Part shown: positions 3,968-32,719 of the stretch, piece after piece | Numbering within the stretch: position 1 is the first letter of the stretch | How the letters are laid out: the number at the start of each line of letters is the position of its first letter | NCBI GenBank assembly: GCA_041654895.1 | Contig: JBAZCR010000001.1 | Span: 11,057-75,056 of the forward strand | DNA: 64,000 bases | DNA from: Candidatus Pacearchaeota archaeon | Lineage (GTDB): Archaea; Nanobdellota; Nanobdellia; Pacearchaeales; GW2011-AR1 | Direction: 5' to 3' | Program-made: the position numbers and the translations under genes | Notes under the pieces: model-generated | The model's database searches: none | What the model saw: the letters and a program-made list of their open reading frames with translations, nothing else | Told to the model about the DNA's origin: nothing

Positions 3968-3971
3968 AAAT

Positions 3972-4054
3972 GAGGAGATGCCGGAGCGGTCAAACGGGGT
4001 ACGTTAAGGGCGTATTGGTTTTTACCTACGGGGGTTCGAATCCTCCTCTCCTCA
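3972..4054 (+). tRNA. tRNA-Leu (type II, long variable arm); anticodon reads AAG by standard numbering
   Basis: Acceptor GAGGAGA/UCUCCUC, D-arm CCG-GAGCGGUCAAA-CGG, anticodon arm GUACG-UUAAGGG-CGUAU, about 14-nt variable arm, T-arm GGGGG-UUCGAAU-CCUCC, discriminator A73, no encoded CCA. A34 is unusual, so the anticodon call is less certain than the Leu/type-II call. Confidence 0.75.
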
Positions 4055-4066
4055 TTAAAATAAAAA

Positions 4067-6470: not shown

Positions 6471-9128
6471 ATGAAGAAAGAGGAGATTGTTGGTTTATCT
6501 AGTGCAGAATCTAAAAAAAGATTAGAAGAACACGGGTTTAATGAAATTAAAGATGTAAATAAAATATCTTCTTTTAAAATATTAATTAGACAAGTAAAAA
6601 GTAATTTCATTATTTATCTTTTGTTAGTTGCTATGATTTTATCTTTTCTTGTAAGTAAAAATATTACAGCCTACGTTTTACTTTTTGTTATACTAATATT
6701 AGTTACAACAGGATTTATTCAGGAATATAAGGCAGAAAAGTCAGTCCAAGCTCTTAAAAAAATGATTACTTCTACATGTCTTGTATTAAGAGATGGAAAA
6801 GAAAAAGAAATATATGTAAAAGAGCTTGTTCCAGGAGATATTTTAATTTTGAGAAATGGAGAAAAAATTCCTGCAGATTGTTTAATATTATATAAAAAGG
6901 AATTGTTAGTTAATGAATCTGTTTTAACCGGAGAAGCACATGAAATAAAAAAGGAGATAGCTATAGATCCTCAAAAATATGAAGATAAAAATGTGTTATT
7001 TATGGGTTCTTTTATTGTCCGTGGAAAAGCAATAGCAAAAGTAATTCATACTGGAATGAATACTAAATTTGGAAAGATTGCTAAATTAATATCCAAGAGT
7101 GAAAAAGAATTACTTTTACAAAAAAAAGTAAATAATATTGCAAAGTACATGGCCACCATAGGTCTATTTTTTTCAATTTTAACTGGACTAATAATTTTAT
7201 TTAGAGCTCCAGAGTTGAATAACCAAGTAATTGTTGAAGCATTAATTCTTGTTATTGCTGTTGCAGTATCATCATTTCCTGAAGGGTTTCCTGTTGTTTT
7301 AATTACAGCATTAGCCACAGGCTCATATAGGATGGCAAAGAAAAATGCCATTGTAAATAGAATGTCAATTATTGAAACATTAGGAGAAACGACAGTTATT
7401 TGTTCAGATAAAACTGGAACAATTACAAAAGGGGAAATGACAGTTACAAACATTTATTCTGATAATAAAGAATATACACTTTCTGGAACTGGTTATAATG
7501 ACAAAGGGAATTTTTATTTAGATAATAAGCCCGTAACTCTAGATAAAGAAAAATCCTTACAATTGTTATTAAAAGCAGGAATATATTGTAATGATGCGCA
7601 TATATATAGGAGTGGTCAAGAAGAGGGTGATTTTGATATAAATGGAACTCCAACAGAGGCTTCATTATTAATTGCAGCTTCAAAGGCAAAATTGTTTTAT
7701 GAGGATTTGTATTTTGATAGAAAAGAAGAGAATCCATTTTCATCTGAAAGAAAAATGATGTCTGTTTTAATTAAAGAAAAAAAAGAGAACTTTATTTACG
7801 CAAAAGGGGCCTTAGAAGTTTTATTAGATAAGTGCTCTTTTATTCAGAGAAATTCTGGAGTATATAGGCTTCTTGAAAAAGATAAAAAGAAAATATTAGA
7901 AGAAAATAAAAGATTTGGGAGTGAGTCATTAAGAACTTTAGCCTTTGCATATAAAATAACAAAAAATAATTTTAATAAAAAAATAGATTTTGAAAAGGAT
8001 TTAATCTTTTTAGGATTTGTAGGTATTAGAGACCCACCAAGAGAAGAGGTTAAAGAGTCTGTTAGGATGTGTAAAAAAGCAGGAATCAAAGTAAAGATGA
8101 TTACAGGAGATAGTAAAGAAACAGCTTATTCAATTGCAAAACAAATTGGTTTAGATAAAGGAAAAATTTTAGAAGGATTTGATATTGATAAATTAACTGA
8201 TGATGAACTAACAAGAATTGTTAATAAGACCGTTATTTTCGCGAGAGTAAGACCAGAACACAAATTAAGGATTGTAAAAGCACTAAAGGAGAATGGTGAA
8301 ATTGTTACAATGACAGGAGATGGAGTTAATGATGCTCCTGCACTAAAAGAAGCACATATTGGAGTTGCAATGGGCAAGAGCGGGACTGATGTTTCTCGTT
8401 CTGTTGCAGATTTAATTATTAAGGACGATGATTTCTCCACTATTGTTGATGCTATAAAAGAAGGAAGAACTATATTCAATAATATTAGAAAGTTTGTAAC
8501 ATATCAATTATCAGCTAATATAGCAGAATTAATAATTATTGTCATAGGCGCCTTATTAGTTCCTATTTTCGGTTGGCCAATCCCATTATTATTAGCATTG
8601 CAAATATTATTTATGAATATTGTAACTGATAATCTTCCTGCAATAACTTTAGGTTTAAACAAATCTTCTCAAGATATTATGGATGATAAACCAAGAGTAA
8701 AAGCACAGATTTTAAATAAGAATTTTGTACTAATTTTAATTTTCTCAGGAATATTTATGGCTTTGTTAGTCTTAATTACATTTTACTTTACATATAATAT
8801 CTTAGGTCAAACTATTGAAAGTGCAAGAACAACATCTTTAATTGCGCTAATATTTTTAGAAATTGCCGGTGCTTTTAATTTTAGAAGCTTCAGAAAAGGA
8901 ACAATTGGAAGATCTCTATTAACTAACCCTTCTTTAGCAATAGCTTCTTTTGTTTCAATTCTTGCAACAGTTTTGATAATTTATACTCCATTAAACATTA
9001 TATTTGAAACAGTTCATATACCTCTAATTGATTGGATTTTTGCTACAGGTCTTGGAATATTTTATATTATTGTATTTGATATTTTTAAAAAAATAAATGT
9101 AAAGAATCAAATACTAGATTTCAATTAA
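6471..9128 (+). CDS. Cation-transporting P-type ATPase (P2-type, Ca2+/Na+-K+ ATPase-like)
   Basis: CSDKTGTITKGEM phosphorylation motif, MITGDSKETA, TGDGVNDAPALK, TGE actuator motif, and 8-10 TM helices. Confidence 0.85.
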   Translation: MKKEEIVGLSSAESKKRLEEHGFNEIKDVNKISSFKILIRQVKSNFIIYLLLVAMILSFLVSKNITAYVLLFVILILVTTGFIQEYKAEKSVQALKKMITSTCLVLRDGKEKEIYVKELVPGDILILRNGEKIPADCLILYKKELLVNESVLTGEAHEIKKEIAIDPQKYEDKNVLFMGSFIVRGKAIAKVIHTGMNTKFGKIAKLISKSEKELLLQKKVNNIAKYMATIGLFFSILTGLIILFRAPELNNQVIVEALILVIAVAVSSFPEGFPVVLITALATGSYRMAKKNAIVNRMSIIETLGETTVICSDKTGTITKGEMTVTNIYSDNKEYTLSGTGYNDKGNFYLDNKPVTLDKEKSLQLLLKAGIYCNDAHIYRSGQEEGDFDINGTPTEASLLIAASKAKLFYEDLYFDRKEENPFSSERKMMSVLIKEKKENFIYAKGALEVLLDKCSFIQRNSGVYRLLEKDKKKILEENKRFGSESLRTLAFAYKITKNNFNKKIDFEKDLIFLGFVGIRDPPREEVKESVRMCKKAGIKVKMITGDSKETAYSIAKQIGLDKGKILEGFDIDKLTDDELTRIVNKTVIFARVRPEHKLRIVKALKENGEIVTMTGDGVNDAPALKEAHIGVAMGKSGTDVSRSVADLIIKDDDFSTIVDAIKEGRTIFNNIRKFVTYQLSANIAELIIIVIGALLVPIFGWPIPLLLALQILFMNIVTDNLPAITLGLNKSSQDIMDDKPRVKAQILNKNFVLILIFSGIFMALLVLITFYFTYNILGQTIESARTTSLIALIFLEIAGAFNFRSFRKGTIGRSLLTNPSLAIASFVSILATVLIIYTPLNIIFETVHIPLIDWIFATGLGIFYIIVFDIFKKINVKNQILDFN

Positions 9129-9682
9129 GGATATCTCTCAACAAAATTTTTATTGTTACGAGGTTTTAGAATTTTATTTAGCTTTCTCTGAGTAGCATAA
9201 AAAATCTCTGGATTAACTAAAGGAGTATGATTAGAAGGATACAATTGATTATTAAATTTTATTTCGCCTAGATAGGTCCTATTTTTTAAAATTTTTTTTA
9301 GACCATTTAATGAAATCCCGAAATCTTTAGAGAGCTTATTTAAAGAAATGTTTGAATTTAAAAATGTTTTAAAAATTAAAATAACTTTTGTTGAGTCTTC
9401 ATTTAATGTAAGAGCATTATTATGGATAGTATAACCAAAAGGAGCTCTTGTAACAGGATAACCCTGCTTTGCCTTAGCTTGCATTCCGGATAACTGTTTT
9501 TTTCCTGGTGTCGAATTATAAATCCTAAAAGTATCTAACATCTTCCAATCTATTTTTTCATTAATGTATTTTTCAAAATCCTTCTTGTTTTCTGGAGAAA
9601 ATGTCGAACAAATATTACATAGTGGCTGGTTAAATTTTAGGATATATCTTTTTTCATGATAACCACATTTTATGCATTTCAT
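9125..9682 (-). CDS. Zn-ribbon plus large-serine-recombinase 'Recombinase' domain protein that lacks the resolvase catalytic domain
   Basis: CIKCGYHE...CNIC ribbon, then GYPVTRAPFGYT...VILIFKTFL..ISLNKLSKDFGISLNGLKKILKNRTYLGEI...HTPLVNPEIFYATQ. This matches the pPyGY / vrrIf / iL.N..Y.GE / HePii..e.F..vQ blocks of the PF07508-type domain. Start trimmed to the internal ATG at 9680-9682, because the track's longer start overlaps the upstream gene. Confidence 0.5.
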   Translation of the reverse strand: MKCIKCGYHEKRYILKFNQPLCNICSTFSPENKKDFEKYINEKIDWKMLDTFRIYNSTPGKKQLSGMQAKAKQGYPVTRAPFGYTIHNNALTLNEDSTKVILIFKTFLNSNISLNKLSKDFGISLNGLKKILKNRTYLGEIKFNNQLYPSNHTPLVNPEIFYATQRKLNKILKPRNNKNFVERYP

Positions 9683-9704
9683 AACTAAATAAAAGGAGGG
9701 GTAT

Positions 9705-10220
9705 TTATAAAATAAGGGGACAATAATGCTTATCTTGAGAAATACTCTCAAGAGTTTTTTTTCTAAAAACATAATGTGCAAGGCCATCTGCCAAATAAAC
9801 CAAATAATTATTTTGGTCTAAATAATCTTGTGAAATAATTTCTAATTGAGATTCTTCTAAATTAAACTTATCAAAAAACATGTTAGAAATAGAATCTATC
9901 TCTTTGTCTTCCTTTAAACCATCGATATATAAGGTTAACTTAGTTACATCACTAAAATCAAAAGGATAAAATAAACTATAGACTATTTGTGGGAGTAATT
10001 TGCCTGAAGGTATTTCAGATTTTAATTTTTCATGTAATAATAGATAAGAATAATCTCTTCTATAAACTTTTTTTAGAAAAGAAGAATAATTTTTTCTGTT
10101 TTTCTCAAAATGGTTTTTTTGTGTGTCCTTTTCTTTATTTGATAATATTAATGCAAAAACTTCTGGGAATCGTCCATGATTTGACTCATCTATTCCTGCA
10201 TAAAGGTTTTTCTTTTTCAT
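9705..10220 (-). CDS. DUF3800-like protein (predicted RNase H-like fold)
   Basis: N-terminal YAGIDESNHG (y.DESG motif) and C-terminal YLVYLADGLAHYV (QxADl.ag-like), characteristic of DUF3800. Start overlaps the xerA stop. Confidence 0.45.
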   Translation of the reverse strand: MKKKNLYAGIDESNHGRFPEVFALILSNKEKDTQKNHFEKNRKNYSSFLKKVYRRDYSYLLLHEKLKSEIPSGKLLPQIVYSLFYPFDFSDVTKLTLYIDGLKEDKEIDSISNMFFDKFNLEESQLEIISQDYLDQNNYLVYLADGLAHYVFRKKTLESISQDKHYCPLIL

Positions 10221-11053
10221 TACAGATTCAGAGAATCTATTGGGCTTTTTATCTTTTTCAGTTCCTGAGTTGATATATGGGTGTATATTTGAGTTGTTGA
10301 TAAATTTGAATGACCTAATAATTCTTGGATTTTCCTTATATCTACATTATTCTCTAATAAATGGGTTGCGAAAGAATGTCTAAGTGTATGACAATGAACT
10401 CTTTTGTTTATATTTGCTTTTCTTGCAGCAGTTGTAACAATTTTTTGAATATTCCTTGTTGTCAACTTTTGTTTTGGACCTGAAAATAGGTAGATATTAT
10501 TATACTTTTTTTGTTTTTCCACTTGTTCCTTTAAATCCTCCATTAAAAAAAGAGGCAAATTAAAAATTCTATCTTTATTTCCTTTTGATTGTTTTATACG
10601 TCCTACTCTTTCATTAAAATCTAAATCATCTAGCCTTAAATTAACCAACTCTGAAACTCTTAAGCCACATGCGTACATTAAAGATATGATCAATTTTGAC
10701 TTTTCGTTGTTTGTTGAATTTATTAGGAATTTTATTTCATCTTTTGTTAAGACCGTAGGCAATATTTTATTTTTCTTAGGCCTTTTAACGCCCAAAGTTG
10801 GATCTTGATTTAATAAATTTGAATAAGCATATCTTATTGCAGCTAGAAAAAGAATTATTGAGCTTGAAGATTTATCTGAATATTTTTCTGCTAAAAAAAA
10901 CTTTATGTCTTCTGTATTTATCTGATTTGGGTTCTTTTCTAAGAAATCTATTAATTCGCTATTAGCTCTTAAATAATTTCGAATAGTATAATTTGAATTT
11001 TTTGTTATTTTTAATTCTATTTCTAATTTTTTTAAAAAATCTTCTTTATTCAT
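10220..11053 (-). CDS. xerA: Tyrosine recombinase XerA (XerC/D family)
   Basis: C-terminal catalytic box HTLRHSFATHLLENNVDIRKIQELLGHSNLSTTQIYTH, with R..K..H..R..H/W..Y residues. 277 aa, as for archaeal XerA. Confidence 0.8.
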   Translation of the reverse strand: MNKEDFLKKLEIELKITKNSNYTIRNYLRANSELIDFLEKNPNQINTEDIKFFLAEKYSDKSSSSIILFLAAIRYAYSNLLNQDPTLGVKRPKKNKILPTVLTKDEIKFLINSTNNEKSKLIISLMYACGLRVSELVNLRLDDLDFNERVGRIKQSKGNKDRIFNLPLFLMEDLKEQVEKQKKYNNIYLFSGPKQKLTTRNIQKIVTTAARKANINKRVHCHTLRHSFATHLLENNVDIRKIQELLGHSNLSTTQIYTHISTQELKKIKSPIDSLNL

Positions 11054-11244: not shown

Positions 11245-11453
11245 AAAAGTTAAAAAGACTCACTTTTTCTAAAATAAATTATGAAAAAAAAGAAATAAAT
11301 TAAGTTTTGCTTATTTTTTAACTCTCACTTTCTAAACTATTTTTTAAGCCTTTTTTAAGGTTGTACGAACTAATTAAACAGAAGTTTTAGAGATTTTTGG
11401 AAAAGCTAAAATAGAAAAGGAAATATCTTTTTTAAGTAAAAACACTAATCAGC

Positions 11454-13024: not shown

Positions 13025-13555
13025 CTGTTTGGACAGCAAACAACAAACAAACAGCCAAAAATAAAAAATTAAATAAAAATATTAAAAAAGGATGTTTTAT
13101 CTTTGATGTTTATAAGAAAACAGATAACCATTAAAAAAGAAAGAAGACTAAGAATACTAAAAAAATAGAACTTAGCTGTTTGGACAGCTGTCCAAAAAAT
13201 GGAAAAACTTATAAAGATAAACAATATTATTATAATATGTTTGGTGGTAAAAAGAGAGTAGAAATTCTAAGAAAAGAAGTGATAGAATCCTTTAATAATG
13301 TTAAAAACGATTTGGCGAAAGTGGGTAAATGGATTAAAGTTATAGACGATAAAAACAATTTAAATGAAAAAAACAATAGAGAATTGAAAGAAGAATTAAA
13401 ACAAATAAGAGAAGATTTAGAAGAAGTAAAAGGTAGCATAGAATTCTTTGGACAAGGATTGTCCAAACAGCTGTCCAAACACAAACAAACAAGTATAAAC
13501 AAACAACAAACAGTGTTTCCTGTCCAAACAGCTGTCCAAACAGCTGTCCAAACAG
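13025..13555. repeat. Dispersed and tandem copies of the 12-mer CTGTCCAAACAG / CTGTTTGGACAG
   Basis: Copies at 13025-13036 (rc), 13176-13187 (rc) adjoining 13188-13196, which gives the perfect 18-bp palindrome TTTGGACAGCTGTCCAAA at 13179-13196 spanning the ATG. Further copies at 13460-13481 (x2) and 13520-13555 (x3 tandem, encoding VQTAVQTAVQT). Related AAACAAACAG(C/T)C repeats occur 3 times at 12970-13070. Confidence 0.7.
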
Positions 13556-13848
13556 TTAAAATAGAGAAATTAACAGTTATGGAAAGGGCAATTATTTTTG
13601 CATTATTAAATAGCGAAATAAAATTAAGTTATGAAGATTTGGCAGCAATGTTTGGGAAAAGTAAAAGTACTATAAGAGGCCAAATTAATAATATTAAACA
13701 AAAAAATGTCAATTTAATTGAAGAATACACAGAACCAAATGGAAAAAAGAGACTATTTTTACCAGAAAAAGTCAAAAGCGACATTACAAAAGACATTAAA
13801 GTGAAAATAAAGCGTGAAAAACCTAAAAAGGCGAAAAGTGAGAGTTAA
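13180..13848 (+). CDS. Coiled-coil / low-complexity repeat / C-terminal winged-helix protein (putative DNA-binding)
   Basis: N-terminal heptad-rich segment, central Q/T-rich repeat encoded by the 12-mer repeats, and a C-terminal wHTH-like ERAIIFALLNSEIKLSYEDLAAMFGKSKSTIRGQINNIKQ. Paralogous in architecture to 14021..14728. Confidence 0.4.
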   Translation: MDSCPKNGKTYKDKQYYYNMFGGKKRVEILRKEVIESFNNVKNDLAKVGKWIKVIDDKNNLNEKNNRELKEELKQIREDLEEVKGSIEFFGQGLSKQLSKHKQTSINKQQTVFPVQTAVQTAVQTVKIEKLTVMERAIIFALLNSEIKLSYEDLAAMFGKSKSTIRGQINNIKQKNVNLIEEYTEPNGKKRLFLPEKVKSDITKDIKVKIKREKPKKAKSES

Positions 13849-14020
13849 AAATAATAAAAAGATATAGAAAAATCATTGAAAAGTGAGGGATTAATAAAAA
13901 AATTAAATTTTAAAAAGAGGTAAAAGAGAGAACAAGAATAAATATAGAGAGAATAAAAAGATTCAGAAACTGACTAAAGAAGAAAGATGAAGATAGTTAT
14001 TCGCTTAAACGAATAGTATC

Positions 14021-14728
14021 TTATAAATCTCTAAGTTTAATTATTGTTGATAAATTTGTAATCTCTTTAAGGGTTGAAGAGATAGAAAGTATAACTTTTT
14101 TGTTATTTAGCCTTCTTTTTGTTATAGGAATTCCTTTTTTAATCAATTTATTGACATAATCTCTTATAGAAGATTCGCTTAAATTTAATTTATCTGAAAT
14201 TAATTTATAGTTTATATTTTCATATTTTTGATCCTCATATGTATATATCGTTGAAAAGACTAACATTTCCTGGGATGTTAAATTTTTGAATGTCTTTCTT
14301 ATATCCTTTTTAACATCATCTAAAGAAGAAATTATTATATGAGCCTTTTCAAAATTAGATGAAATATTTAAAAAACCACTATTTTCATTTGAATTATTGA
14401 AATTTATGCCTATATTGTCTGTTGGTTTGTCTGTTGGTTTGTTTGTTGGAACCCCTTCATTTCCTGTGGAAAAAATGAAATTTTGAGCTTTTAAGCCATT
14501 TAAGAGGAGATTTTCATTAAGATCTATTGCTGGTTTGTTGGACTTATTATATTCACCTAATAGGTAATGTGTTGGAATTGCCTTTTTTTCTATTGAATCA
14601 ATTTTATTAGAATTTAGGTTTTGATAAGATCTTATAGCGTTTAATTCATTTTTCAATAAATCTAGTTCCTTTTTTAAAAAATTTATTTCTTCTTTGATTT
14701 TAGAAAATGCCTCTTTTAACATATCCAT
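14021..14728 (-). CDS. Coiled-coil / repeat / C-terminal winged-helix protein (paralog of 13180..13848)
   Basis: N-terminal LKEAFSKIKEEINFLKKELDLLKNELNAI coiled coil, KPTDKPTD tandem repeat (DNA GGTTTGTCTGTTGGTTTGTCTGTTGGTTTGTTTGTTGG at about 14418-14455), and the C-terminal wHTH MLVFSTIYTYEDQKYENINYKLISDKLNLSESSIRDYVNKLIKKG. Confidence 0.4.
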   Translation of the reverse strand: MDMLKEAFSKIKEEINFLKKELDLLKNELNAIRSYQNLNSNKIDSIEKKAIPTHYLLGEYNKSNKPAIDLNENLLLNGLKAQNFIFSTGNEGVPTNKPTDKPTDNIGINFNNSNENSGFLNISSNFEKAHIIISSLDDVKKDIRKTFKNLTSQEMLVFSTIYTYEDQKYENINYKLISDKLNLSESSIRDYVNKLIKKGIPITKRRLNNKKVILSISSTLKEITNLSTIIKLRDL

Positions 14729-14783
14729 AAGAAAAGATAATCAAAATTATTTATATTTATGATTGTTTTTAATTATAATAATT

Positions 14784-15053
14784 TCATTGCATTTGTTTGT
14801 ATGCTTCATATGTTTTATTTGAAAGTCTCCATCTTAATCTTCTTTCATAAATTTGACCTAAAGAATTTCTATTTATTTTAACAACTAAACCCTTATTATT
14901 TAAGTCAAGAAGTAATTTCTTTATGAATTCTTCATCCCTTGCTAATTCTTTTGCTATATTACTTGTAAATACTTGTTTGGGTGAAATTAAAAACAAATAA
15001 GATAATATTTGTTCTGAAATTTTCTTTTTTTTTGACTCTGATATTCTTGGCAT
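14784..15053 (-). CDS. Small winged-helix transcriptional regulator-like protein
   Basis: 89 aa. ISEQILSYLFLISPKQVFTSNIAKELARDEEFIKKLLLDLNNKGLV is HTH/wing-like. Confidence 0.4.
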   Translation of the reverse strand: MPRISESKKKKISEQILSYLFLISPKQVFTSNIAKELARDEEFIKKLLLDLNNKGLVVKINRNSLGQIYERRLRWRLSNKTYEAYKQMQ

Positions 15054-15438: not shown

Positions 15439-15861
15439 GTGAATAAAAATATGATAAAATTATTAGCATCAAAAATAACAAGTATTTTGGCTCAAAGAGA
15501 TCCTACTTTTAATGGGAAAATTGAATTGAATCAAAATATTAAAATAAAAAAAATAGAGAAATTTGCCTTGGAAGGTTCAAAAAAAGATTCTCTAAAAGTA
15601 AATTATATTTATGATATTGATTATAAAAAACTTGGTAAAATAAGTATTGAAGGTATATTATATTTAGATGTTGAACAAAAAATAATGAAAGAAATTATAA
15701 AAGACTGGAAAGAAAATAAAAAAAATGAAGAAAGACAATTAGAAATTATTAATATAATTATTCAAAAAGCTTCAATTAAGGCTATAGAATTAGAGGATCA
15801 ATTAGGGCTTCCAATTCATTTTAGATTGCCTTTTTTAAAAAGAAAAAAAGAAAATGACTAA
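15439..15861 (+). CDS. Hypothetical protein
   Basis: 140-aa Lys-rich ORF with no recognisable motifs. Confidence 0.3.
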
Positions 15862-16066
15862 GAAAAAAAGAAAAGTAAATTGGATATTAACTCTTTTAAT
15901 GTCTATATTTTTTGGTGGTATTGGAGTAGATAGATTTATTTTAGGGCATATTTTTTTAGGATTACTTAAATTATTTACTTTTGGTGGTTTAGGTATTTGG
16001 TGGCTAATAGATTTGATATTAATTGCTACAAAATATAATTTTAAAAATATTATATGGGTTGATTAA
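15854..16066 (+). CDS. TM2-domain small membrane protein
   Basis: [35 protein letters not shown] matches the TM2 signature (GxxGxxRFYLG...T.GG.GIW...D). Confidence 0.5.
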
Positions 16067-16085
16067 TTAATTTAATTTTAAAAAA

Positions 16086-16341
16086 TACAGTCACCCTATA
16101 ATTTCTTATGGAATTTATTTAAATAATTAATTTAAATTAATTATTTTTATATTTTTATTTATAAATATTTATATTATATAATATATATTATATTATGATT
16201 GTTTTCTAATATATACATTTAATATTAAATTATTTGTATTTTTAATTTTTTCAATTTCATGTGGAATAGAAATTAAGGGGTGACTGTATAAAATTTTTCT
16301 TCGATAAATAAAAAATGTTCTTTTTATATTTCCATAAGAAA
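16086..16341. promoter_or_regulatory. Candidate chromosomal replication origin (oriC): ORB-like inverted repeats flanking an AT-rich unwinding element
   Basis: TACAGTCACCC (16086-16096) pairs with GGGTGACTGTA (16277-16287). ATTTCTTATGGAA (16101-16113) pairs with TTCCATAAGAAAT (16329-16341). Both are perfect inverted pairs. They enclose about 160 bp that is over 90% AT (ATATTATATAATATATATTATATTATG...). The region lies directly upstream of orc1/cdc6. The TTCCA-N3-GAAAT dyad resembles the archaeal mini-ORB TTCCA-N3-GGAAA. Confidence 0.6.
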
Positions 16342-16408
16342 TGATGGTAAGGATTCTTATCTTTCAATTATATTAAACTTTATATAGTTTAAATTTATAT
16401 TTTAATTA

Positions 16409-17623
16409 ATGGCTGTTGAATTAAATAATATTTTTGAAAATGCTGTTAAAAATAGTTTATTTAAGAATAAAAGTGTTTTACAAGTAAAATATACTCCTGA
16501 AAGTATTCCTCATAGAGATGAACAGATAAAATCTATTGCAAGTATTTTAGCTTCTTGTTTAAGAAATGAAAGGCCAAGTAATTTATTTGTTTATGGTAAA
16601 ACAGGAACAGGAAAAACATTGAGCATTCAATATGTAATGAGAGAATTAACAAAAAAAGCAAAAGAAGTAGATGTTGAAGTTAGTTTTGAATATATTAATT
16701 GTAAATTGAGAAAAGTTGCAGATACAGAATATAGAATATTAGCTGCTTTAATTAAGCAATTAGGTGGTGATATTCCTGCAACAGGCCTTCCAACAGATAA
16801 AGTATGGAATAAATTTATTGAAATGGTTGATAAAAAGAAACAATTAATAGTTTTTATTTTTGATGAAATTGATCAGGCTATTAAAAAAATGAGTGATACT
16901 TTCTTATATTCTTTAACAAGATTAAATCAAGAATTAAATAATGCTCAAATATCTATTATTGGTATTAGTAATGATGTAACTTTTTTAGAAAATATAGATC
17001 CTAGAGTAAGAAGTAGTTTGGGTGAAGAAGAATTTATATTTCCCCCATATAATGCTATTCAATTGCAAGATATTTTAAATGAAAGGTGTTCTATAGCTTT
17101 TAAGGAAAAAGTAATAAAAGAAGGGGTTATTGCAAAATGTGCAGCTTATGCTGCAAGAGAACATGGCGATGCAAGACGTGCTTTAGATTTATTAAGAATT
17201 GCAGCAGAACTTTGTGAGAGAGAAGGAAAATTAGAAGTAGAGGAAAAATATATTGATTTAGCAAATCAAAAAATTGAAAAGGACAAAATTCTAGATATTG
17301 TAGAGACAATTCCAAAGCAACATCAATTAGTTTTACTATCTATTATAAATCTAAATAAAAAACAAAAAAATAAGAAAATAGAAAAATATTTCACTGGGGA
17401 TGTTTATAATTCCTATCAAGAATTATGCTTTCAAACAAAGACAGAAAGTTTAACTCAAAGAAGAATTAGTGATATATTAGCTGATATTGATATGTTGGGG
17501 ATAATTAATGCAAAAGTGATTAGTAAAGGAAGACATGGAAGAACAAGAGAAATTAAATTAAGTGTTCCAGATAATTTACTTAATAAAATAGAAAATTTAT
17601 TAAGGAATAGCTTAGGATTATAA
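16409..17623 (+). CDS. orc1: Orc1/Cdc6 replication initiator
   Basis: Walker A VYGKTGTGKT, Walker B FIFDEID, sensor motifs, C-terminal winged helix, and the typical N-terminus (...YTPESIPHRDEQI). Confidence 0.9.
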   Translation: MAVELNNIFENAVKNSLFKNKSVLQVKYTPESIPHRDEQIKSIASILASCLRNERPSNLFVYGKTGTGKTLSIQYVMRELTKKAKEVDVEVSFEYINCKLRKVADTEYRILAALIKQLGGDIPATGLPTDKVWNKFIEMVDKKKQLIVFIFDEIDQAIKKMSDTFLYSLTRLNQELNNAQISIIGISNDVTFLENIDPRVRSSLGEEEFIFPPYNAIQLQDILNERCSIAFKEKVIKEGVIAKCAAYAAREHGDARRALDLLRIAAELCEREGKLEVEEKYIDLANQKIEKDKILDIVETIPKQHQLVLLSIINLNKKQKNKKIEKYFTGDVYNSYQELCFQTKTESLTQRRISDILADIDMLGIINAKVISKGRHGRTREIKLSVPDNLLNKIENLLRNSLGL

Positions 17624-17674: not shown

Positions 17675-19270
17675 ATGGTTAATGAGGTATTTAAAAAGTG
17701 TATAAAAAAAGGTTTTTTATTAGATAAAGAAATTTTAAATCTATTTAATGAATTAGGTGAAAAGGAATCCTCTGAAATTATTGATATTATAAGTAGTCTG
17801 AAAATGAATGAGAGAATCATCACAAAAAAAGTTTTAACTAAATTTATTCCAAAAATTAAGGCAAATTTATCTTTTGATTTTGAAAAAATAAATTTTTTCT
17901 TTGATTACTTTGAAGAAGGAAAAGTTATTAATGAATTAAAAAAAGAGAATAGTAATTTCAAGATATTAAGTGCTCCCTTCTTTCCTCAGAGGAAAATATC
18001 TGTTTCTGATTTTGTTAACCATTTTAAAGATAGATTTGAAAGCATAAAAAGTATCTTAGAAACAAAGAATCTGGAAAACTTAACAACTATTAGAAAAATT
18101 AAAGGGAATACAGGTAATTTTAGTTTTATAGGGGCTGTTTTAGATAAAAGAACTACTAAGAATAAAAATATTATGCTTGAAGTAGAAGATTTAACAGGCT
18201 CTATTAGTGTATTAGTTAATTCAAACAAAAAAGAAATATATGATAAAGCAAAAGATATTATATTAGATGATATTATTGGATTTAATATAAGTTCAAGTAG
18301 TAATTTTTTATACTGTAATGATTTAATATATCCTGATTGTATTTTAAATGAAAAAAAAAGAATTAAGGAAGATTCTTGGGCGGTTTTTATTAGTGATTTA
18401 CATTGTGGTTCTAAACTTTTTTTAGAAGAAAATTTTCTTAAATTTATAAAATGGATTAATGGGAAACAAGGAGACGAGGAATATAGAAAAATAGCTGAGA
18501 AGGTAAAATATTTATTCATTACAGGAGATTTAGTTGATGGTGTGAGTCATTATCCAGGACAAGAAAAGGATTTAAAGATTATGACTAGTGTAGGTCAATA
18601 TGCTAAGGTCGAAGAGCTTTTAAAATTGATAAGAAATGATATTCAAATATTTGCTTGTCCGGGAAATCATGATGCTGTTTGGGTTGGAGAACCTCAACCA
18701 ATTATAAGTGAAAGGTGGGCAGAAGGATTACATAAAATATCAAACTTAGAACTAGTAACTAATCCTTGCTTAATTGAAATTGATGGAGGTTTTAAGATTT
18801 TGATGTATCATGGTGCGAGTCTTAATCCTTTTGTTGAAGAACTTCCGGAAATAAGAGCAAAATATGGAAAGCATTCTCCTACAACGATTGTTAAAGAGAT
18901 TTTAAAGAGAAGGCATCTTTCTCCAATGCATGGATTAGTAGATTACATTCCTTGTGATAAAGATTCTTTAGTTATTAATACTATTCCGGATATTGTTTTA
19001 ACTGGAGATTTGCATAGATGTGAGGTTTCTATGCATAATAATATTTTATTGGTTGCTGGCTCTTGTTGGCAAGCACAAACGAATTTTATGGAAAAAGTTG
19101 GTGTTGAAGCAGATCCAAATAAAGCCATATTATTTAATTTAAAAACTAGAGAAATAAAAATAATAGATTTTAGTGAAGAAGATAAAAATGTTCAATGGTT
19201 AAAGAATCCTGAATTATATTGTCCTTATGATTGCAATTTTAATGGGGGGGATGAAAATAAAAGCATTTAA
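17675..19270 (+). CDS. polD1: DNA polymerase II (PolD) small subunit DP1, a calcineurin-like phosphoesterase
   Basis: OB-fold region followed by phosphoesterase motifs (FISDLHCGS, ITGDLVDG, CPGNHD, GDLH). Conserved position next to orc1. Confidence 0.8.
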   Translation: MVNEVFKKCIKKGFLLDKEILNLFNELGEKESSEIIDIISSLKMNERIITKKVLTKFIPKIKANLSFDFEKINFFFDYFEEGKVINELKKENSNFKILSAPFFPQRKISVSDFVNHFKDRFESIKSILETKNLENLTTIRKIKGNTGNFSFIGAVLDKRTTKNKNIMLEVEDLTGSISVLVNSNKKEIYDKAKDIILDDIIGFNISSSSNFLYCNDLIYPDCILNEKKRIKEDSWAVFISDLHCGSKLFLEENFLKFIKWINGKQGDEEYRKIAEKVKYLFITGDLVDGVSHYPGQEKDLKIMTSVGQYAKVEELLKLIRNDIQIFACPGNHDAVWVGEPQPIISERWAEGLHKISNLELVTNPCLIEIDGGFKILMYHGASLNPFVEELPEIRAKYGKHSPTTIVKEILKRRHLSPMHGLVDYIPCDKDSLVINTIPDIVLTGDLHRCEVSMHNNILLVAGSCWQAQTNFMEKVGVEADPNKAILFNLKTREIKIIDFSEEDKNVQWLKNPELYCPYDCNFNGGDENKSI

Positions 19271-21246: not shown

Positions 21247-24200
21247 TTGATGGAGAAAACTTTAGCAAAACCAGGTTATTGGGATGTTGATTCTTACTTT
21301 ATTGATTTAGAAAATAGTGTTAAAAAAGAGTATGAGGTTGCAAATAAGGCGAGGAAAGTTGGAATTGATCCAAAAGATAAAGTTGAAATTCCTCTAGCAA
21401 CAAGTATGGCTGAAAAGTGTGTTGGCTTAATCTCTACGGTTTACCCTCAATTACCGATTCAAGAAATAACTTCTCGTATGTTAGAATTAGAACAAAAATA
21501 TGGCCAATTAGATACGACTGTTAGTTTTATCATTGCAAAAGAAATTGCTGAAGAAAAGTTTTGTAATTTTAAAAATAAACTTGAAGGAATTGATGCAGGA
21601 ATAAGATTGGGGTTTGCATATTTGACTTTAGGTGTTGTTGCCTCTCCTATTGAAGGATATACGGGTTTAGAAATTGGCAAAACAAAAGATGGAAAAGAAT
21701 ATTTCATTGTAAATTTTAGTGGACCAATTAGATCTGCTGGAACAACAGCTACTTGTGTTATTTTAATGTTAATTGATTTTTTAAGAGACTATTTTGGCTA
21801 TGCAAAATATGATCCAGATGAAATTGAGGTTAAAAGGTATGTTACAGAATGTACTGATTATCATGAAAGAATAACAAATTTACAATATTTTCCAACAGAA
21901 GAAGAAATGATTTTTTTAGCAAAAAATTTGCCGATTCAGATTTCTGGGGATCCTACTGAAAGTAAAGAGGTTAGTAATTATAAGGATTTATCGAGGGTTA
22001 ATACTAATTATATTCGAGGAGGAATGTGTCTTACTTTTGCAGAGGGATTAGCACAAAAGGCTGCAAAAGGTCTTAAAAGGTTAAATAGCCCTAAAAAAAA
22101 TGGTTTAAAATGTGATGGTTGGGATTTTTTAAATGAATATTTAGAGATACATTCTAAGAGAGAAAAGGGAGGTGAAGATATTATAGCAACTTATATTAAG
22201 GATTTAGTTGCAGGTCGTCCGGTTTATGGTCATCCTTCAAGAAGTGGCGGATTTAGGTTTAGGTATGGTAGAAGTAGGATTAGTGGTTTTAGTTCTGTAA
22301 GTATTCATCCTGCAACAATGGGTGTTACAAATGGTTTTTTGTCTCATGGGACTCAATTAAAAATAGAAAAACCTACAAAAGGGTGTATTATTACTTCTTG
22401 TGATAGTATTGATGGACCTATTGTAAAATTGAGAAAAGGAAGTGTTAGAAAATTAAATGATTTAAATGAGGCCTTAAAATTATATAAGGATGTTAAAGAA
22501 ATCATTTACTTGGGAGATATTCTTTTTCCACTAGGAGATGTGATGGATAGGAATCATAATTTAATAAAATCAGGATATGTCGAGGAGTGGTGGGATTTAG
22601 AATTAAAGAAAAAGTTAGAAATTACTGGAGAAGTATTAGAATATGATTATAATAATATTAATTTCGAAGAAGCATTAATTATAAGTGAGAAATATTCTAT
22701 GAGTCTTTATCCAAAGTATATTTATTATTGGAATCAAATTGATATAGATTCTTTTTTATGGCTGCTTGATTGGTTAAGAAATGGTATATGGAGAGGAGAT
22801 GAAGACGGAAAACTAGTTTTACCTTGGAGTGAAATGGTAAGAGATAAGTTCTCAAAGGGAAAGAGAGCTTTAGAATTGATTGGGTTGCCTCATGAAGTAG
22901 TTTTTGACAATGTTGTTTTAGATAATATTAATTCTAAAGCATTATTAACTAATTTAGGAATTTTGGTTGAAAAAAAAGAGGGAGAAACAATAAAAGAGAA
23001 GATTAATATTATTTTAGAAAAAAAAGAAGATTTTGTTGAAGATGTTCTTAAAAATATTAATTTTTTGTCTGAATATGAAATTAAAGATAAATCAGGTGAA
23101 TTTATTGGCTCTAGAATGGGTCGTCCTGAAAAAGCTAAATTAAGAAAATTAAAAGGTAGTCCTAATTGTTTATTTCCTGTTTCAGAACAAGGAGGAAGAT
23201 TAAGAAGTGTATTAGAGACAGTTAAGGTCGGTTATATTAAATCAAGCTGGCCATTATATAAATGTGATTGTGGTAATGAAACAATTTATCCTCTTTGTGA
23301 AAAATGTGGAAATAAAACAAAAAGAAATTATTATTGTAGGATTTGTGATAAGGTTAGCGAAATTCCTTGTCAAGAACATGAGAATGTTGTAAGTGCATTA
23401 AACAAAAAAATAGATTCTTCTTATTATTTTGATGATGCATTAAAAAAATTAGGCTATGATAAAGGTCAAATTCCAAATTTAATTAAGGGGGTTAGGGGTT
23501 TAACTAATGAAAATTCTGATTTAGAACATTTGGGAAAAGGAATTTTGAGAGCAAAATATAATTTGTGCGTAAATAAAGATGGTACTATAAGATATGATGG
23601 TACTGAGTTTTGTTTAACACATTTTAAACCTCAAGAAATAGGAACTAGTATTGAGCTCTTAAAAAAATTAGGTTATGAAAAAGATATTTATGGAGATAAT
23701 TTAATTGATGAATCTCAAATTTTAGAATTAAAGCCACATGACGTTGTTTTACCTTCTTGTAAAGATACTCCCGATGAAAAAGCAGATGATGTTTTTATGA
23801 ATATATCTCAATTTATAGATGAAGAATTAGAAAAACTATATGGCTTGGAAAAATATTATAATTTGAAAAAGAGAGAAGATTTAATTGGCCAGTTAATAGT
23901 ATGTATGGCTCCTCATAATTGTGCAGGAGTTATAGGAAGAATAATTGGATTTAGCCAGTTGCAAGGTATTGTAGCAAGCCCTTATATGCATGCTGCTATG
24001 AGGAGAGATTGTGATGGGGATGAAGCTGCTGTTATGATGTTAATGGATGTTTTGATTAATTTTAGTAAGGAATATTTGCCTAGTCATAGGGGTGGGACTC
24101 AAGATGCTCCTTTAGTATTAAATACGAAAATTCAAGCAGGAGAAGTAGACGATCAGATTTTGGATTTTGAAACTTGTAGTTCTTATCCTTTAGAAATGTA

Positions 24201-24759
24201 TGAATTATCTCAAGAGAATGTTCATTCGAGTAATGTTAAAATGGAAAGGGTTAAAGATAGATTAAAGGAAAATATTTGTCCTTTTAGTGGCACTGGTTTT
24301 ACGCATGATTGTAAAGACTTCAATATTGGTATTTTAAATGGAGCATATAAGGTTTTACCTACAATGAAAGATAAAGTTGAAAAGCAAATGGAATTAGTTG
24401 AAAAGATTCGTGCAGTTGATACTGACGATGTTGCTCGTTTAGTTATTGAAAGGCACTTTATTAGGGATATAAGAGGTAATTTAAGAAAATTTTCTCATCA
24501 ACAATTTAGATGTGTTAAATGTAATACTAAATTTAGAAGACCTCCTTTAATTGGGATTTGTACAAAATGTGGTGGAAAGATAATTTTTACAATTAGTGAA
24601 GGTTCAATTAAAAAGTATTTAGAACCTGCATTATCTTTAGCAAAAAATTATAAAATATCTGAATACACTCGAGAAGGTTTGGAATTAACAAAGTTATATA
24701 TTGAGAGTATTTTTGGTAAAGATACTGAAAAACAAGAAGATTTAAAGAAATGGTTTTAA
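21247..24759 (+). CDS. polD2: DNA polymerase II (PolD) large catalytic subunit DP2
   Basis: 1170 aa. Has multiple Cys4 Zn modules (CDCGNETIYPLCEKCGN; CRICDK...C; C-terminal CVKCNTKFRRPPLIGICTKCGG), the DP2 catalytic region (...AMRRDCDGDEAAVMMLMDVLINFS...), and is located near DP1. Confidence 0.85.
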   Translation: MMEKTLAKPGYWDVDSYFIDLENSVKKEYEVANKARKVGIDPKDKVEIPLATSMAEKCVGLISTVYPQLPIQEITSRMLELEQKYGQLDTTVSFIIAKEIAEEKFCNFKNKLEGIDAGIRLGFAYLTLGVVASPIEGYTGLEIGKTKDGKEYFIVNFSGPIRSAGTTATCVILMLIDFLRDYFGYAKYDPDEIEVKRYVTECTDYHERITNLQYFPTEEEMIFLAKNLPIQISGDPTESKEVSNYKDLSRVNTNYIRGGMCLTFAEGLAQKAAKGLKRLNSPKKNGLKCDGWDFLNEYLEIHSKREKGGEDIIATYIKDLVAGRPVYGHPSRSGGFRFRYGRSRISGFSSVSIHPATMGVTNGFLSHGTQLKIEKPTKGCIITSCDSIDGPIVKLRKGSVRKLNDLNEALKLYKDVKEIIYLGDILFPLGDVMDRNHNLIKSGYVEEWWDLELKKKLEITGEVLEYDYNNINFEEALIISEKYSMSLYPKYIYYWNQIDIDSFLWLLDWLRNGIWRGDEDGKLVLPWSEMVRDKFSKGKRALELIGLPHEVVFDNVVLDNINSKALLTNLGILVEKKEGETIKEKINIILEKKEDFVEDVLKNINFLSEYEIKDKSGEFIGSRMGRPEKAKLRKLKGSPNCLFPVSEQGGRLRSVLETVKVGYIKSSWPLYKCDCGNETIYPLCEKCGNKTKRNYYCRICDKVSEIPCQEHENVVSALNKKIDSSYYFDDALKKLGYDKGQIPNLIKGVRGLTNENSDLEHLGKGILRAKYNLCVNKDGTIRYDGTEFCLTHFKPQEIGTSIELLKKLGYEKDIYGDNLIDESQILELKPHDVVLPSCKDTPDEKADDVFMNISQFIDEELEKLYGLEKYYNLKKREDLIGQLIVCMAPHNCAGVIGRIIGFSQLQGIVASPYMHAAMRRDCDGDEAAVMMLMDVLINFSKEYLPSHRGGTQDAPLVLNTKIQAGEVDDQILDFETCSSYPLEMYELSQENVHSSNVKMERVKDRLKENICPFSGTGFTHDCKDFNIGILNGAYKVLPTMKDKVEKQMELVEKIRAVDTDDVARLVIERHFIRDIRGNLRKFSHQQFRCVKCNTKFRRPPLIGICTKCGGKIIFTISEGSIKKYLEPALSLAKNYKISEYTREGLELTKLYIESIFGKDTEKQEDLKKWF

Positions 24760-30868: not shown

Positions 30869-32719
30869 TTAACAAACTTTATTTAGATATTCAATGATAG
30901 TACTCATATCTTTTTTTATTTCTACTGGAACTGTAGTAAAATAAACTTTATTACCAGAATCTATTTCATTCCAATTTCCATCTTTAAATTCAAACATTTT
31001 TAAATCAGGGTAATCTATTTCTAATACATCTTTATCTTTATTTTTTGAAATCCCATATTTCTTATCTATACTTAGCATCATACGTCCATCTCCATAATCA
31101 AATAATTCTATTTCCTTCTCTTGCTTAGATAGATAGCTCTGAAAAAGTTGTTTTATACGTTCTGTTTCATCTTGATTTTGTGTTAGATTTGACACTAAAT
31201 ATTGATAGAATTCTTCTTTATTTTGTTCATTTAAAGGATTAAATGAATATGATAAATATTGTTTTTCGCCAATAAAATTAGTGGTAACTGTTCCGTGATA
31301 TACGCTATATTTATTGTCTGACATTTTTAGTATTTCATTTATTACATCATTTATTGTTTCTATATCTCTTTTGAATATCCAGAAACCTTTCTTTAAACTT
31401 TTTATTTCTTCTTCTGAGCTAGAAAATTTTTCTTTTAAATACCACTTTTCTCCATTTTTTATAATCAATGTTCCTGGTTTCGATTCACTATTTTTTTTCA
31501 TTTTAAAATTGTCTACAAAAATATAATAGATATCATTTTTAGAAAAAATCTTGTTTAAAATACTCTTTTCTTCTAGTTTTTCGCATCTTTTAACATCTTC
31601 TGATTTACTAATTATTTTTGGACACTTATTATTATAACAAACTATTTTTGTTGTGCTCCCTGATTTTACTTCTGTAAGTGCTATAAAGCATTCACAATCT
31701 TCTCCATCTAAAGCACATTTATACTTTTTATTACAAACTATTTCGTCTTCTTGAGTTTGTAAATTTTTATTTACTTTTTCTATATACTCCTTAAAGGTTG
31801 TAGTTCTTATCTCAAGAATACACTCTTCTAAATATTTATTATTTTTAATCCACTCTTTTTGGTTTAAATTAAGAGAGCTTTCATATTCTGAAATTAGTTT
31901 TATTTTATTCTCCCTAGTTACATGTCCGACAACACCTAAAGAATACCATAATCTTCCGAATTCATCTAAATATGCACTATTTTGCTTTTTATTATTAATA
32001 TACAAATACCATTTATGATAAGGATATTTTTCAAAAGGTTTTTTTATATCGTTTGATAATGAAGGATAATATTGCGTAAGGCCTCCAGACGATTCTATAT
32101 TAAAATAAGTATTTTGACAATAATTGGGATTTTTCACTTCAAAATCATCACAAAAATATCCTATTGGACAATCTTCATTTGAGTTGCATGTTTCTGGTAG
32201 TTCCTCTGTTGTTTCTGGATCTATTTCTTTTGAAAAATCTTCTAGAATCTTTTTTAGAATCTCAAAATTTTCATTTGTTTCTACTTCTTCTTTAATTTCT
32301 TCTGAATTTGTTTTTGTTATAGCTTCCCATTTGCCTTCAGGAGTATTAGAATTTTCTCCTTGTGATTGTGTATGATCTGTGTTTTCTAAAAATCTATATA
32401 TCCCTGTAGTATTAATTTTAAATTTTGAACTTGGACCTATCTTTTTGTCTAAGGTCAATTTACATTCACTTGGGCAAATTTCTAAATGACCTTGAAATTC
32501 TTTTTCATTTACACTTTTTTCAAAGCATAATCCTTCTTCAGTTGTTTTTCCTTTTTGATTAAAAAAAATTAATATTTTGTCCATTTGAGAACCCATTTTT
32601 TGAATCCCACTGACCAACCAACCGTTATATGCTCCTACAGCAATTAGAACTAGTAATAATAAGGCCATTATAATTACAACTAATTTACTTACCGTCATTC
32701 CACCTCCTTCTTCTGCCAT
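30869..32719 (-). CDS. Large Cys-rich surface protein with pilin-like N-terminus (candidate pilus-associated adhesin)
   Basis: MAEEGGGMTVSKLVVIIMALLLLVLIAVGAYNGW N-terminus, 616 aa, with many Cys pairs (CNKKYKCALDGEDCECF, CYNNKCPKI, CNSNEDCPIGYFCDD). Confidence 0.45.
   Translation of the reverse strand: MAEEGGGMTVSKLVVIIMALLLLVLIAVGAYNGWLVSGIQKMGSQMDKILIFFNQKGKTTEEGLCFEKSVNEKEFQGHLEICPSECKLTLDKKIGPSSKFKINTTGIYRFLENTDHTQSQGENSNTPEGKWEAITKTNSEEIKEEVETNENFEILKKILEDFSKEIDPETTEELPETCNSNEDCPIGYFCDDFEVKNPNYCQNTYFNIESSGGLTQYYPSLSNDIKKPFEKYPYHKWYLYINNKKQNSAYLDEFGRLWYSLGVVGHVTRENKIKLISEYESSLNLNQKEWIKNNKYLEECILEIRTTTFKEYIEKVNKNLQTQEDEIVCNKKYKCALDGEDCECFIALTEVKSGSTTKIVCYNNKCPKIISKSEDVKRCEKLEEKSILNKIFSKNDIYYIFVDNFKMKKNSESKPGTLIIKNGEKWYLKEKFSSSEEEIKSLKKGFWIFKRDIETINDVINEILKMSDNKYSVYHGTVTTNFIGEKQYLSYSFNPLNEQNKEEFYQYLVSNLTQNQDETERIKQLFQSYLSKQEKEIELFDYGDGRMMLSIDKKYGISKNKDKDVLEIDYPDLKMFEFKDGNWNEIDSGNKVYFTTVPVEIKKDMSTIIEYLNKVC

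Follow-up and report, generated by a model that had tools for sequence, protein, structure and literature searches.

The sequence analysed here is a 64,000-nucleotide stretch, hereafter the window, from contig JBAZCR010000001.1 of a Candidatus Pacearchaeota archaeon (GenBank assembly GCA_041654895.1), and our subject is the 342-bp intergenic region (16067-16408) immediately upstream of the gene for the replication initiator Orc1/Cdc6. A preliminary description had proposed an archaeal replication origin at 16086-16408. Here we report that an extremely AT-rich core in this region is bracketed by predicted origin recognition boxes (ORBs), in an arrangement that is conserved among relatives and consistent with a chromosomal origin of the oriC1 type. 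The features on which this prediction depends are the following:

15854-16066, TM2-domain gene, the left border of the 342-bp intergenic region
16085-16113, minus strand, distal full ORB, reading TTCCATAAGAAAT-TATA-GGGTGACTGTAT on that strand (matrix match, perfect repeat arms)
16114-16253, AT-rich core of 140 bp and 95.7% AT, a candidate DNA unwinding element by composition
16254-16289, plus strand, long ORB variant, ATTTCATGTGGAAT-AGAAAT-TAA-GGGGTGACTGTAT (a two-mismatch copy of the 13-mer described below, and a 22-nt inverted repeat with the distal ORB)
16328-16353, plus strand, proximal ORB, TTCCATAAGAAAT-GAT-GGTAAGG, with a weakened G-string, 56-81 bp before the orc1 ATG
16409-17623, plus strand, orc1/cdc6 initiator gene, 404 amino acids (aa), Orc1-1 / oriC1 class (Pfam, NCBIfam, solved homologues)

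Anatomy of the intergenic region

The two perfect inverted-repeat pairs of the preliminary description are both present: an 11-mer, TACAGTCACCC (16086-16096) / GGGTGACTGTA (16278-16288), which lengthens to 12 bp (16085/16278), and a 13-mer, ATTTCTTATGGAA (16101-16113) / TTCCATAAGAAAT (16330-16342). Each motif has exactly two exact copies in the window. When the 342-bp intergenic region was shuffled 2000 times with its dinucleotides preserved, a perfect inverted repeat of at least 11 bp containing at least three G/C appeared in 0.2% of the shuffles, and raising the minimum to 12 bp reduced this to 0.05%; two such G/C-containing pairs, of 12 bp and 13 bp, are present in the actual region. The pairs had been taken for different elements, but they are instead the dyad half and the G-string half of one type of predicted ORB, with the consensus TTCCATARGAAAT-N3-GGGGTG, of which three lie between the TM2-domain gene and orc1.

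The distal ORB scores 26.6 bits (16090-16115, minus strand) against a weight matrix built from relatives alone and used with a hit cut-off of 8 bits, compared with at most 18.4 bits in shuffled sequence; its dyad half borders the AT-rich core and its G-string points outward. In the long ORB, a mini-ORB-like dyad beside the core, which alternatively reads TTCCACATGAAAT on the minus strand (16254-16266), is followed by a second GAAAT and then by the G-string, and this variant scores just 7.5 bits against the short-ORB matrix. The long and distal ORBs have a GAAAT-N-GGGGTGACTGTAT half in common, and it is for this reason that 16085-16106 and 16268-16289 form a 22-nt inverted repeat with 91% complementarity. 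The proximal ORB scores 23.9 bits. One minus-strand ORB thus stands on the far side of the core and two plus-strand ORBs on the orc1 side, the dyads of the ORBs that bracket the core facing it and all three G-strings pointing outward.

The DNA so enclosed was said to exceed 90% AT, and it does: the 181 bp between the 11-mer arms are 91.7% AT, and positions 16112-16251 are the most AT-rich 140 bp of the window (96.4%, with the runner-up at 88.6%). From its composition and position, the core at 16114-16253 would act as the unwinding element.

The neighbouring gene encodes an intact initiator. Its product carries Cdc6_C, Cdc6_lid and AAA domains (Pfam) and passes the NCBIfam equivalog NF001625 with 503.7 bits against a cut-off of 501. 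The nearest solved structures are Sulfolobus solfataricus Orc1-1 (2QBY_A, E=1.6e-105) and Aeropyrum pernix ORC1 (2V1U_A, 7.8e-92), with both of which it aligns over its full length, keeping the P-loop GKTGTGKT, the DEID motif and the winged-helix wing RHGRTREI (vs RYGKTKEI). Hundreds of relatives have 75-80% identity to this protein, and a protein from a metagenome-assembled genome (MAG) labelled ‘Candidatus Pacearchaeota archaeon’ is 100% identical, which bears out the early guess of an AT-rich, uncultured archaeon. No second orc1 was found in the 64-kb window, and a rival locus beside a paralog is accordingly absent from it.

Conservation among relatives

A scan of genome contigs with the single Orc1 protein returned just two loci; we used 80 metagenomic loci whose Orc1 proteins have 53-79% identity, found in an alignment-based metagenome scan (individual loci are given as L numbers); closer and longer relatives were added through exact-protein look-ups. 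The 9-mers most enriched upstream of orc1 in these loci are fragments of TTCCATAGGAA and TTCCATAAGAA, present in roughly 30-37% of the upstream regions and in less than 1% of control chunks. Likewise, when one mismatch is permitted, the 11-mer dyad TTCCATA[GA]GAA has a density of 2.37 per kb in the 700 bp before orc1 and of 0.12 per kb elsewhere (80+ loci), a 19-fold enrichment. Aligned instances of the distal ORB give the consensus TTTCCATA(A/G)GAAAT-NAA-GGGGTG, and the proximal plus-strand ORB, with the consensus TTTCCATAGGAAATANAGGTGT, is found in most related loci.

The layout is conserved together with the motif. A minus-strand ORB, an AT-rich gap and one or two plus-strand ORBs lie upstream of orc1 in 67 related loci; the gap averages 229 bp and is 86% AT, compared with 69% for the locus, and in 62 of the 67 it contains the most AT-rich 100 bp of the whole locus of about 7 kb. 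All three intergenic elements are kept in a relative with 96% Orc1 identity, where the distal ORB differs by one change and the proximal ORB, TTCCAAAAGAAATAAAGGTGATG, is nearer the consensus. The long variant is kept in relatives with about 71-81% Orc1 identity, and appears as TTCTYTTGGARAGGAAAT-N3-GGGGTGAG at the same position in L083, L090, L091, L003, L012 and L014. Many relatives have a second proximal ORB at -30 to -47, over the likely orc1 promoter.

The same motif is rare away from this locus. The matrix gives only three hits above 8 bits in the 64-kb window, at 16090-16115 (minus), 16328-16353 (plus) and 14448-14473 (minus), all within 2 kb of one another, and the possibility that the repeats are a generic element scattered along the genome finds no echo here. 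In the 21-kb stretches available for relatives, hits of at least 20 bits are limited to the orc1 upstream region and a nearby winged helix-turn-helix (wHTH) gene, and a handful of lower-scoring ones (15-19 bits) lie 4-11 kb downstream of orc1.

One locus of a different label has the same arrangement. L002 (CAZJZJ010000001.1), labelled ‘uncultured Methanosarcinales archaeon’, has an orc1 of 51% identity preceded by a minus-strand ORB, an AT-rich stretch and a plus-strand ORB; the name may result from misbinning or mislabelling.

Comparison with characterised origins

Archaeal origins are in general built from AT-rich DNA with ORBs on either side, adjoining cdc6 (PMC4010727), and close parallels to the window are found in Pyrococcus. 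As at oriC of P. abyssi and P. furiosus, the predicted origin lies directly upstream of cdc6/orc1, which is followed by the genes for the two subunits of DNA polymerase D (PolD), the place of orc1 and dp1 having been recognised from the start:

17675-19270, plus strand, dp1, PolD small subunit DP1 (Pfam DNA_pol_E_B, Metallophos)
21247-24759, plus strand, dp2, PolD large subunit DP2 (Pfam PolC_DP2_N, PolC_DP2_central, PolC_DP2_cat)

Unlike in Pyrococcus, dp1 and dp2 are separated here by two unrelated genes, one for a GT2 glycosyltransferase and one a 216-aa open reading frame (ORF).

The likeness extends to the sites themselves. According to the oligonucleotides in print (Matsunaga et al. 2007, PMC1904270), the long ORB of P. 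furiosus is TTCCAGTGGAAAT-GAAACTCT-GGGGGG, and ‘TTCC’ and ‘GAA’ are the invariant cores required for Cdc6 binding in that species (PMC1904270). The experimentally bound P. furiosus mini-ORB, TTCCAGTGGAAAT, equals the lineage 13-mer TTCCATAGGAAAT at 11 of 13 positions, among them both cores, and the window copy at 10 of 13, in keeping with the initial view of the 13-mer as a mini-ORB-type dyad; the G-string noticed in the other repeat is the G-string half of the ORB. Dyad, GAAAY, spacer and GGGG follow each other in window positions 16254-16289 as in the Pyrococcus long ORB, and from GTGGAA onward 16 of 22 positions are equal with the same spacing (counted by eye; PMC1904270). In both systems the ORBs form an inverted repeat around AT-rich DNA. 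The differences are of number and spacing: Pyrococcus has two long ORBs and many mini-ORBs, whereas we find three ORBs only, and the spacer between GAAAT and the G-string is 3 nt in the common ORB here but 8 nt in Pyrococcus.

The crenarchaeal origins offer a second comparison. Both the winged-helix domain of Orc1 and the initiator-specific motif of its AAA+ domain contact DNA (PMC3089459), and an ORB of S. solfataricus or A. pernix oriC1 consists of a dyad bound by the former and an adjacent stretch contacted by the latter, a division that is seen here in the sequence (PMC3089459). The Sulfolobus and Aeropyrum ORBs are likewise inverted around an AT-rich core that adjoins the initiator gene. 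The central dyad bases of the predicted ORBs differ from those of Sulfolobus and Aeropyrum. The 22-bp ORB of A. pernix likewise has the spacing dyad-N3-GGGGT. Three origins with different initiators are present in Sulfolobus, in contrast to the lone orc1 of this phylum: ORC1/Cdc6 is single-copy across 206 complete Nanobdellota genomes (bioRxiv 10.64898/2026.05.13.725050).

A conserved ORB inside the wHTH gene

No ORB of the window is stronger than one that lies beyond the intergenic region and beyond the coordinates first given, 16086-16408:

14448-14473, minus strand, outlying full ORB, TTTTCCACAGGAAATGAAGGGGTTCC, within the wHTH ORF 14021-14728 (minus strand), read in the frame F-S-T-G-N-E-G-V-P

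This site, TTCCACAGGAAATGAAGGGGT, scores 32.1 bits, the top matrix hit of the window, and lies 1.64 kb to the left of the AT-rich core and about 2 kb upstream of orc1, in the orientation of the distal ORB. In the product of the ORF, a long linker joins a coiled coil at the N terminus to a MarR-like wHTH domain at the C terminus, and those of its about 1500 homologues that are named by source come from Nanoarchaeota or Pacearchaeota; a fold search with this protein returned generic MarR-like hits only, none of them pointing to replication proteins. The ORB codes for S-(T/I)-G-N-x-G-V, a peptide that is conserved within a linker which is otherwise hypervariable and for which disorder is predicted; after it come (ACAG)n-type repeats that code for TDRQ or TDKP.

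At least 24 related loci have the same intragenic ORB, at distances of 1.0-2.9 kb upstream of orc1. Its Ser codon is TCC in 28 of 28 copies, compared with 4.7% TCC usage in orc1 of the same loci, and its second Gly codon is GGG in 25 of 26, compared with 25% usage, while the encoded peptide varies only at degenerate ORB positions. This codon pattern indicates that the putative site is kept by selection on synonymous codon positions, that is, at the level of DNA. In some relatives the wHTH gene region has an ORB copy on each side of the (ACAG)n repeat, the two being 58-73 bp apart and placed relative to the orc1 ATG at -1902/-1967 (L028), -1888/-1953 (L033), -1844/-1917 (L026) and -1941/-1999 (L020); the copies are in tandem in the first three and inverted in L020, and in L028 and L033 a stop codon follows in the reading frame shortly after the second copy.

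No AT-rich stretch lies beside the intragenic ORB, and it is therefore not a competitor of the 16.2-kb locus as an origin. It is probably an accessory Orc1 site, by analogy with the Cdc6-bound cluster of ORBs that Thermococcales have inside a nearby gene, dp1 (PMC1904270); here there is a single site in an upstream wHTH gene, and dp1 of the window (17675-19270), unlike that of Thermococcales, has no matrix hit above 8 bits.

Strand asymmetry around the predicted origin

In sliding windows, plain GC and AT skew mostly follow the coding strand and are uninformative. Third-codon-position skew is confounded by amino-acid content, and we therefore used four-fold degenerate sites; a pooled comparison of the ±3-kb flanks is confounded as well, because the minus-strand genes of the left flank are the same orthologues at every locus. 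To the right of 16.4 kb, the plus strand has an excess of T over A by 0.26 and of G over C by 0.23 at four-fold sites regardless of the strand of the gene. In coding sense, the AT and GC skews at these sites (AT4 and GC4) of that arm are -0.31 and +0.13 for plus-strand genes and +0.20 and -0.32 for minus-strand genes.

After the left arm was lengthened by 8.7 kb with a 99.96% identical contig, a single-change-point model gave only one break in the resulting 72.7 kb, at 14,390 (support 13,764-15,033; delta logL 64.7). Among A/T, T makes up 0.476 on the left side of this point and 0.635 on the right side; the cumulative keto excess passes through a shallow minimum at about 10-14 kb. At 14.4 kb the regime changes and the sign reverses weakly at most, and that composition shifts no more than about 2 kb from the AT-rich core counts in favour of an origin. 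With regard to the skew switch expected at about 16.2 kb the picture is equivocal: the four-fold sites do have a change point, but it lies at 14.4 kb, is without a clear reversal and has no counterpart in plain GC skew. Myllykallio et al. reportedly found, in 2000, that the skew of Pyrococcus switches at oriC, and this lineage is without a clear switch.

Several of these observations weigh against an origin at this site. The plain cumulative GC-skew curve passes 16.2 kb without an inflection and keeps rising. Left of 13.9 kb the four-fold asymmetry is nearly gone, leaving 25 kb that are near-symmetric with no clear reversal, and the change point is some 1.8 kb from the AT-rich core, which its support interval excludes. 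In five (L088, L090, L091, L096, L097) of six relatives with 10-kb flanks the asymmetry is the same on either side of orc1, and in the sixth, L095, the regime changes at orc1 with the skewed arm on the left, in the opposite sense to the window; across 47 loci, GC skew of the left flank correlates with that of the right (r=0.79). The asymmetry of the relatives is an excess of G and T on the orc1-coding strand, independent of gene orientation, and is extreme in L088 and L091, where raw GC skew is +0.2 to +0.66 in every 1-kb window and the four-fold keto fraction is 0.80-0.87. If replication is its cause, forks do not diverge symmetrically from this site. Bidirectional replication from the predicted origin is not confirmed by strand composition. 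To these points may be added that Thermococcus kodakarensis is reported to grow without the use of its Cdc6 or origin (PMC5663688).

The absence of a switch is no disproof of an origin, since a peaked cumulative skew is seen in just 18 of 224 RefSeq archaeal genomes (PMC7111523). However, a strong asymmetry that is independent of gene orientation and runs through a predicted origin needs explanation.

Origin, operator or captured element

We consider the 16.2-kb locus to be the chromosomal, Orc1-dependent replication origin of this Pacearchaeota archaeon, of the oriC1 type, with a probability of about 0.75. This reading is favoured by repeats that are not random, an extreme AT-rich core, the adjacent intact gene of the Orc1-1 class and a conserved layout; the sequence features of an Orc1-type origin are all present, and the preliminary proposal of an origin upstream of orc1 is upheld as a prediction.

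From work on Sulfolobus, Aeropyrum and Pyrococcus, the Orc1 encoded by the neighbouring gene would bind each ORB as a monomer, with its winged-helix domain on the dyad and the initiator-specific motif of its AAA+ domain on the adjacent G-rich half, and binding would bend and underwind the DNA. The inward-facing winged-helix domains may then recruit MCM onto the AT-rich core, which would melt. Later work in Sulfolobus is said to have found MCM recruited by winged-helix domains in this inward-facing position. Because the proximal ORB is just upstream of the orc1 start, Orc1 probably also regulates its own gene.

Such regulation suggests an alternative in which the ORBs are Orc1 operators that control only orc1, and perhaps the wHTH gene, or the remains of a dormant origin, with replication starting elsewhere or depending on recombination. 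The placement of the proximal ORB 56-81 bp before the orc1 ATG, and of the second proximal ORB of relatives at -30 to -47, suits an operator, and the asymmetry, which in five of six relatives continues unreversed through the locus and in the window shows no clear reversal either, is consistent with dormancy, as is the origin-independent growth of T. kodakarensis noted above. A pure operator, however, needs no inverted ORB 200-500 bp upstream, beyond the AT maximum, and this layout is kept in 62-67 loci. Neither the 64-kb window nor the 21-kb stretches of relatives contain another ORB cluster, and with orc1 single-copy in the phylum no alternative pair of initiator and origin is evident. We therefore regard the operator or dormant-origin explanation as unlikely, though it is the strongest of the rivals.

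A replicon of foreign descent has also to be considered, in view of two genes to the left of the predicted origin:

9125-9787, minus strand, tyrosine recombinase gene (XerA- or integrase-like)
10220-11053, minus strand, recombinase-domain ORF

These recombinase ORFs, at 9125-11053 and thus 5-7 kb to the left of the origin, stand beside a conserved inverted pair of 15-mers and could be what remains of a plasmid or virus that integrated together with an orc1 of its own; Sulfolobus and haloarchaea offer known cases of captured extrachromosomal origins (PMC4010727). Yet the orc1-dp1-dp2 cluster and the synteny of the left flank (ribosomal protein genes, recombinase, wHTH gene and PRC-barrel gene) are conserved in every relative that was fetched, the initiator is the single-copy core Orc1 of the phylum, of the Orc1-1 class, and there is no step in GC content at the locus, all of which makes an integrated element very improbable.

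That the repeats are chance features of an AT-rich spacer is scarcely credible and was rejected: imperfect inverted repeats do abound in such DNA (1.3 kb gave a list of 141 pairs), but G/C-containing perfect repeats of this length occur in no more than 0.2% of shuffles, and the matrix hits, the layout and the 19-fold enrichment of the motif, specific in position and orientation, are foreign to chance. The reading of the repeats as a pure terminator was rejected as well.

If the locus is the chromosomal origin, its asymmetry invites a further proposal, which we put forward speculatively and hold to be rather improbable: that replication of the small Pacearchaeales chromosome is unidirectional or very asymmetric and runs from the orc1-adjacent origin rightwards through orc1, dp1 and dp2. 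The conserved module of ORB, AT-rich core and ORB sits amid a G and T excess that is unchanged on both sides in most relatives; in the window the asymmetry begins near the origin and continues unbroken for 48 kb rightward, the 25 kb to the left being almost symmetric; and a few kb from the origin there is a conserved gene for a XerA-like recombinase. Under unidirectional replication, origin and terminus would nearly coincide and one strand would be leading almost genome-wide. Alternatively, the asymmetry could fail to reverse because the origin is little used.

A bacterial parallel exists in Ch65, which belongs to the Candidate Phyla Radiation (CPR; Microgenomates, order UBA1400) and in which, as in the relatives here, one strand is strongly G-rich regardless of gene orientation (PMC7143001). 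Its cumulative GC skew has no turning point, and unidirectional theta replication, or an adjacent origin and terminus, was proposed by the authors (PMC7143001). Ch65 and its relatives have small genomes and are uncultured, probably symbiotic organisms, as here (PMC7143001), and the disparity that runs through the predicted origin of L088 and L091 is similar to that of Ch65 or stronger. However, Ch65 is a bacterium with DnaA-type replication and was studied in closed genomes, whereas our comparison covers 73 kb of this genome and, for relatives, stretches of 21 kb; the asymmetry of the window genome is also weaker, and, unlike that of Ch65, changes near the origin.

Neighbouring genes and further observations

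An orc1 promoter can be placed only tentatively. The candidate TATA box, picked out by eye, is the following:

16379-16386, plus strand, candidate orc1 TATA box TTTATATA, 23-30 bp before the ATG

A TATA-like octamer at a fixed distance from the orc1 ATG is found in only 11 of 82 related loci, and it is for this reason that the assignment is tentative. Rfam models at their gathering threshold detect three tRNAs in the window and nothing in the origin region.

The inverted 15-mer beside the recombinase genes, GAAAAGTGAGAGTTA, came from a k-mer screen. Its two copies, at 11320-11330 (minus) and 13836-13846 (plus), are about 2.5 kb apart and point outward, and each of the seven genomes examined has the pair. 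A conserved helix-turn-helix ORF (13180-13848) has its stop codon within reach of the right copy, which overlaps it and abuts the skew change point, and copies of TGTCCAAACAG occur within the segment that the pair bounds. An invertible segment and a regulatory site are both possibilities; comparison of three genomes revealed no inversion of the segment.

Relatives carry a gene for a bacterial-type DNA polymerase III alpha (Pol III alpha; PHP, DNA_pol3_alpha, finger and HHH_6 domains) just 3' of dp2, at 17250-20369 in L088, 17256-20468 in L091, 17369-20494 in L096, 12946-19728 in L090 and from 14886 to the end in L095. In L090, DP2 and Pol III alpha are fused in one continuous ORF of 2260 aa, and a single DP2 and Pol III alpha product is also called in L095 and on the P0007 contig. 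In none of the window ORFs scanned against Pfam was Pol III alpha detected, and our literature search found no paper on a DP2-adjacent or fused Pol III alpha in these relatives.

Elsewhere in the window, ARAGORN places a tRNA-Leu(aag) at 3971-4055 (plus strand), within the ribosomal-protein gene cluster, where the Rfam tRNA model is silent at its gathering threshold. Six large ORFs of 505-1607 aa, one of them of 1607 aa, are without a Pfam match at E<=1e-5 (33936-35825, 35827-40650, 41842-44034, 30869-32719 on the minus strand, 59718-61235 and 61458-63290).

Implications for Pacearchaeales

The locus can be understood as a predicted canonical origin of the oriC1 type in a lineage without a previously described origin. 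In our literature search no account of ORBs or origins in DPANN or Pacearchaeota came to light, and a 2026 preprint in which 208 complete Nanobdellota genomes were rotated to ORC1 reports no origin or skew analysis (bioRxiv 10.64898/2026.05.13.725050). Pacearchaeales genomes have so far merely been ‘rotated to ORC1’ in this way, with no definition of the origin.

For this large uncultured DPANN lineage, the predicted Orc1 sites and unwinding region can now be given at base precision, and the ORB consensus is usable for locating and orienting origins in hundreds of MAGs. Two aspects go beyond a routine origin call: the putative ORB inside the wHTH gene next to the origin, which is constrained at synonymous positions, and the strand asymmetry that does not reverse, which bears on the mode of replication of these reduced archaea.

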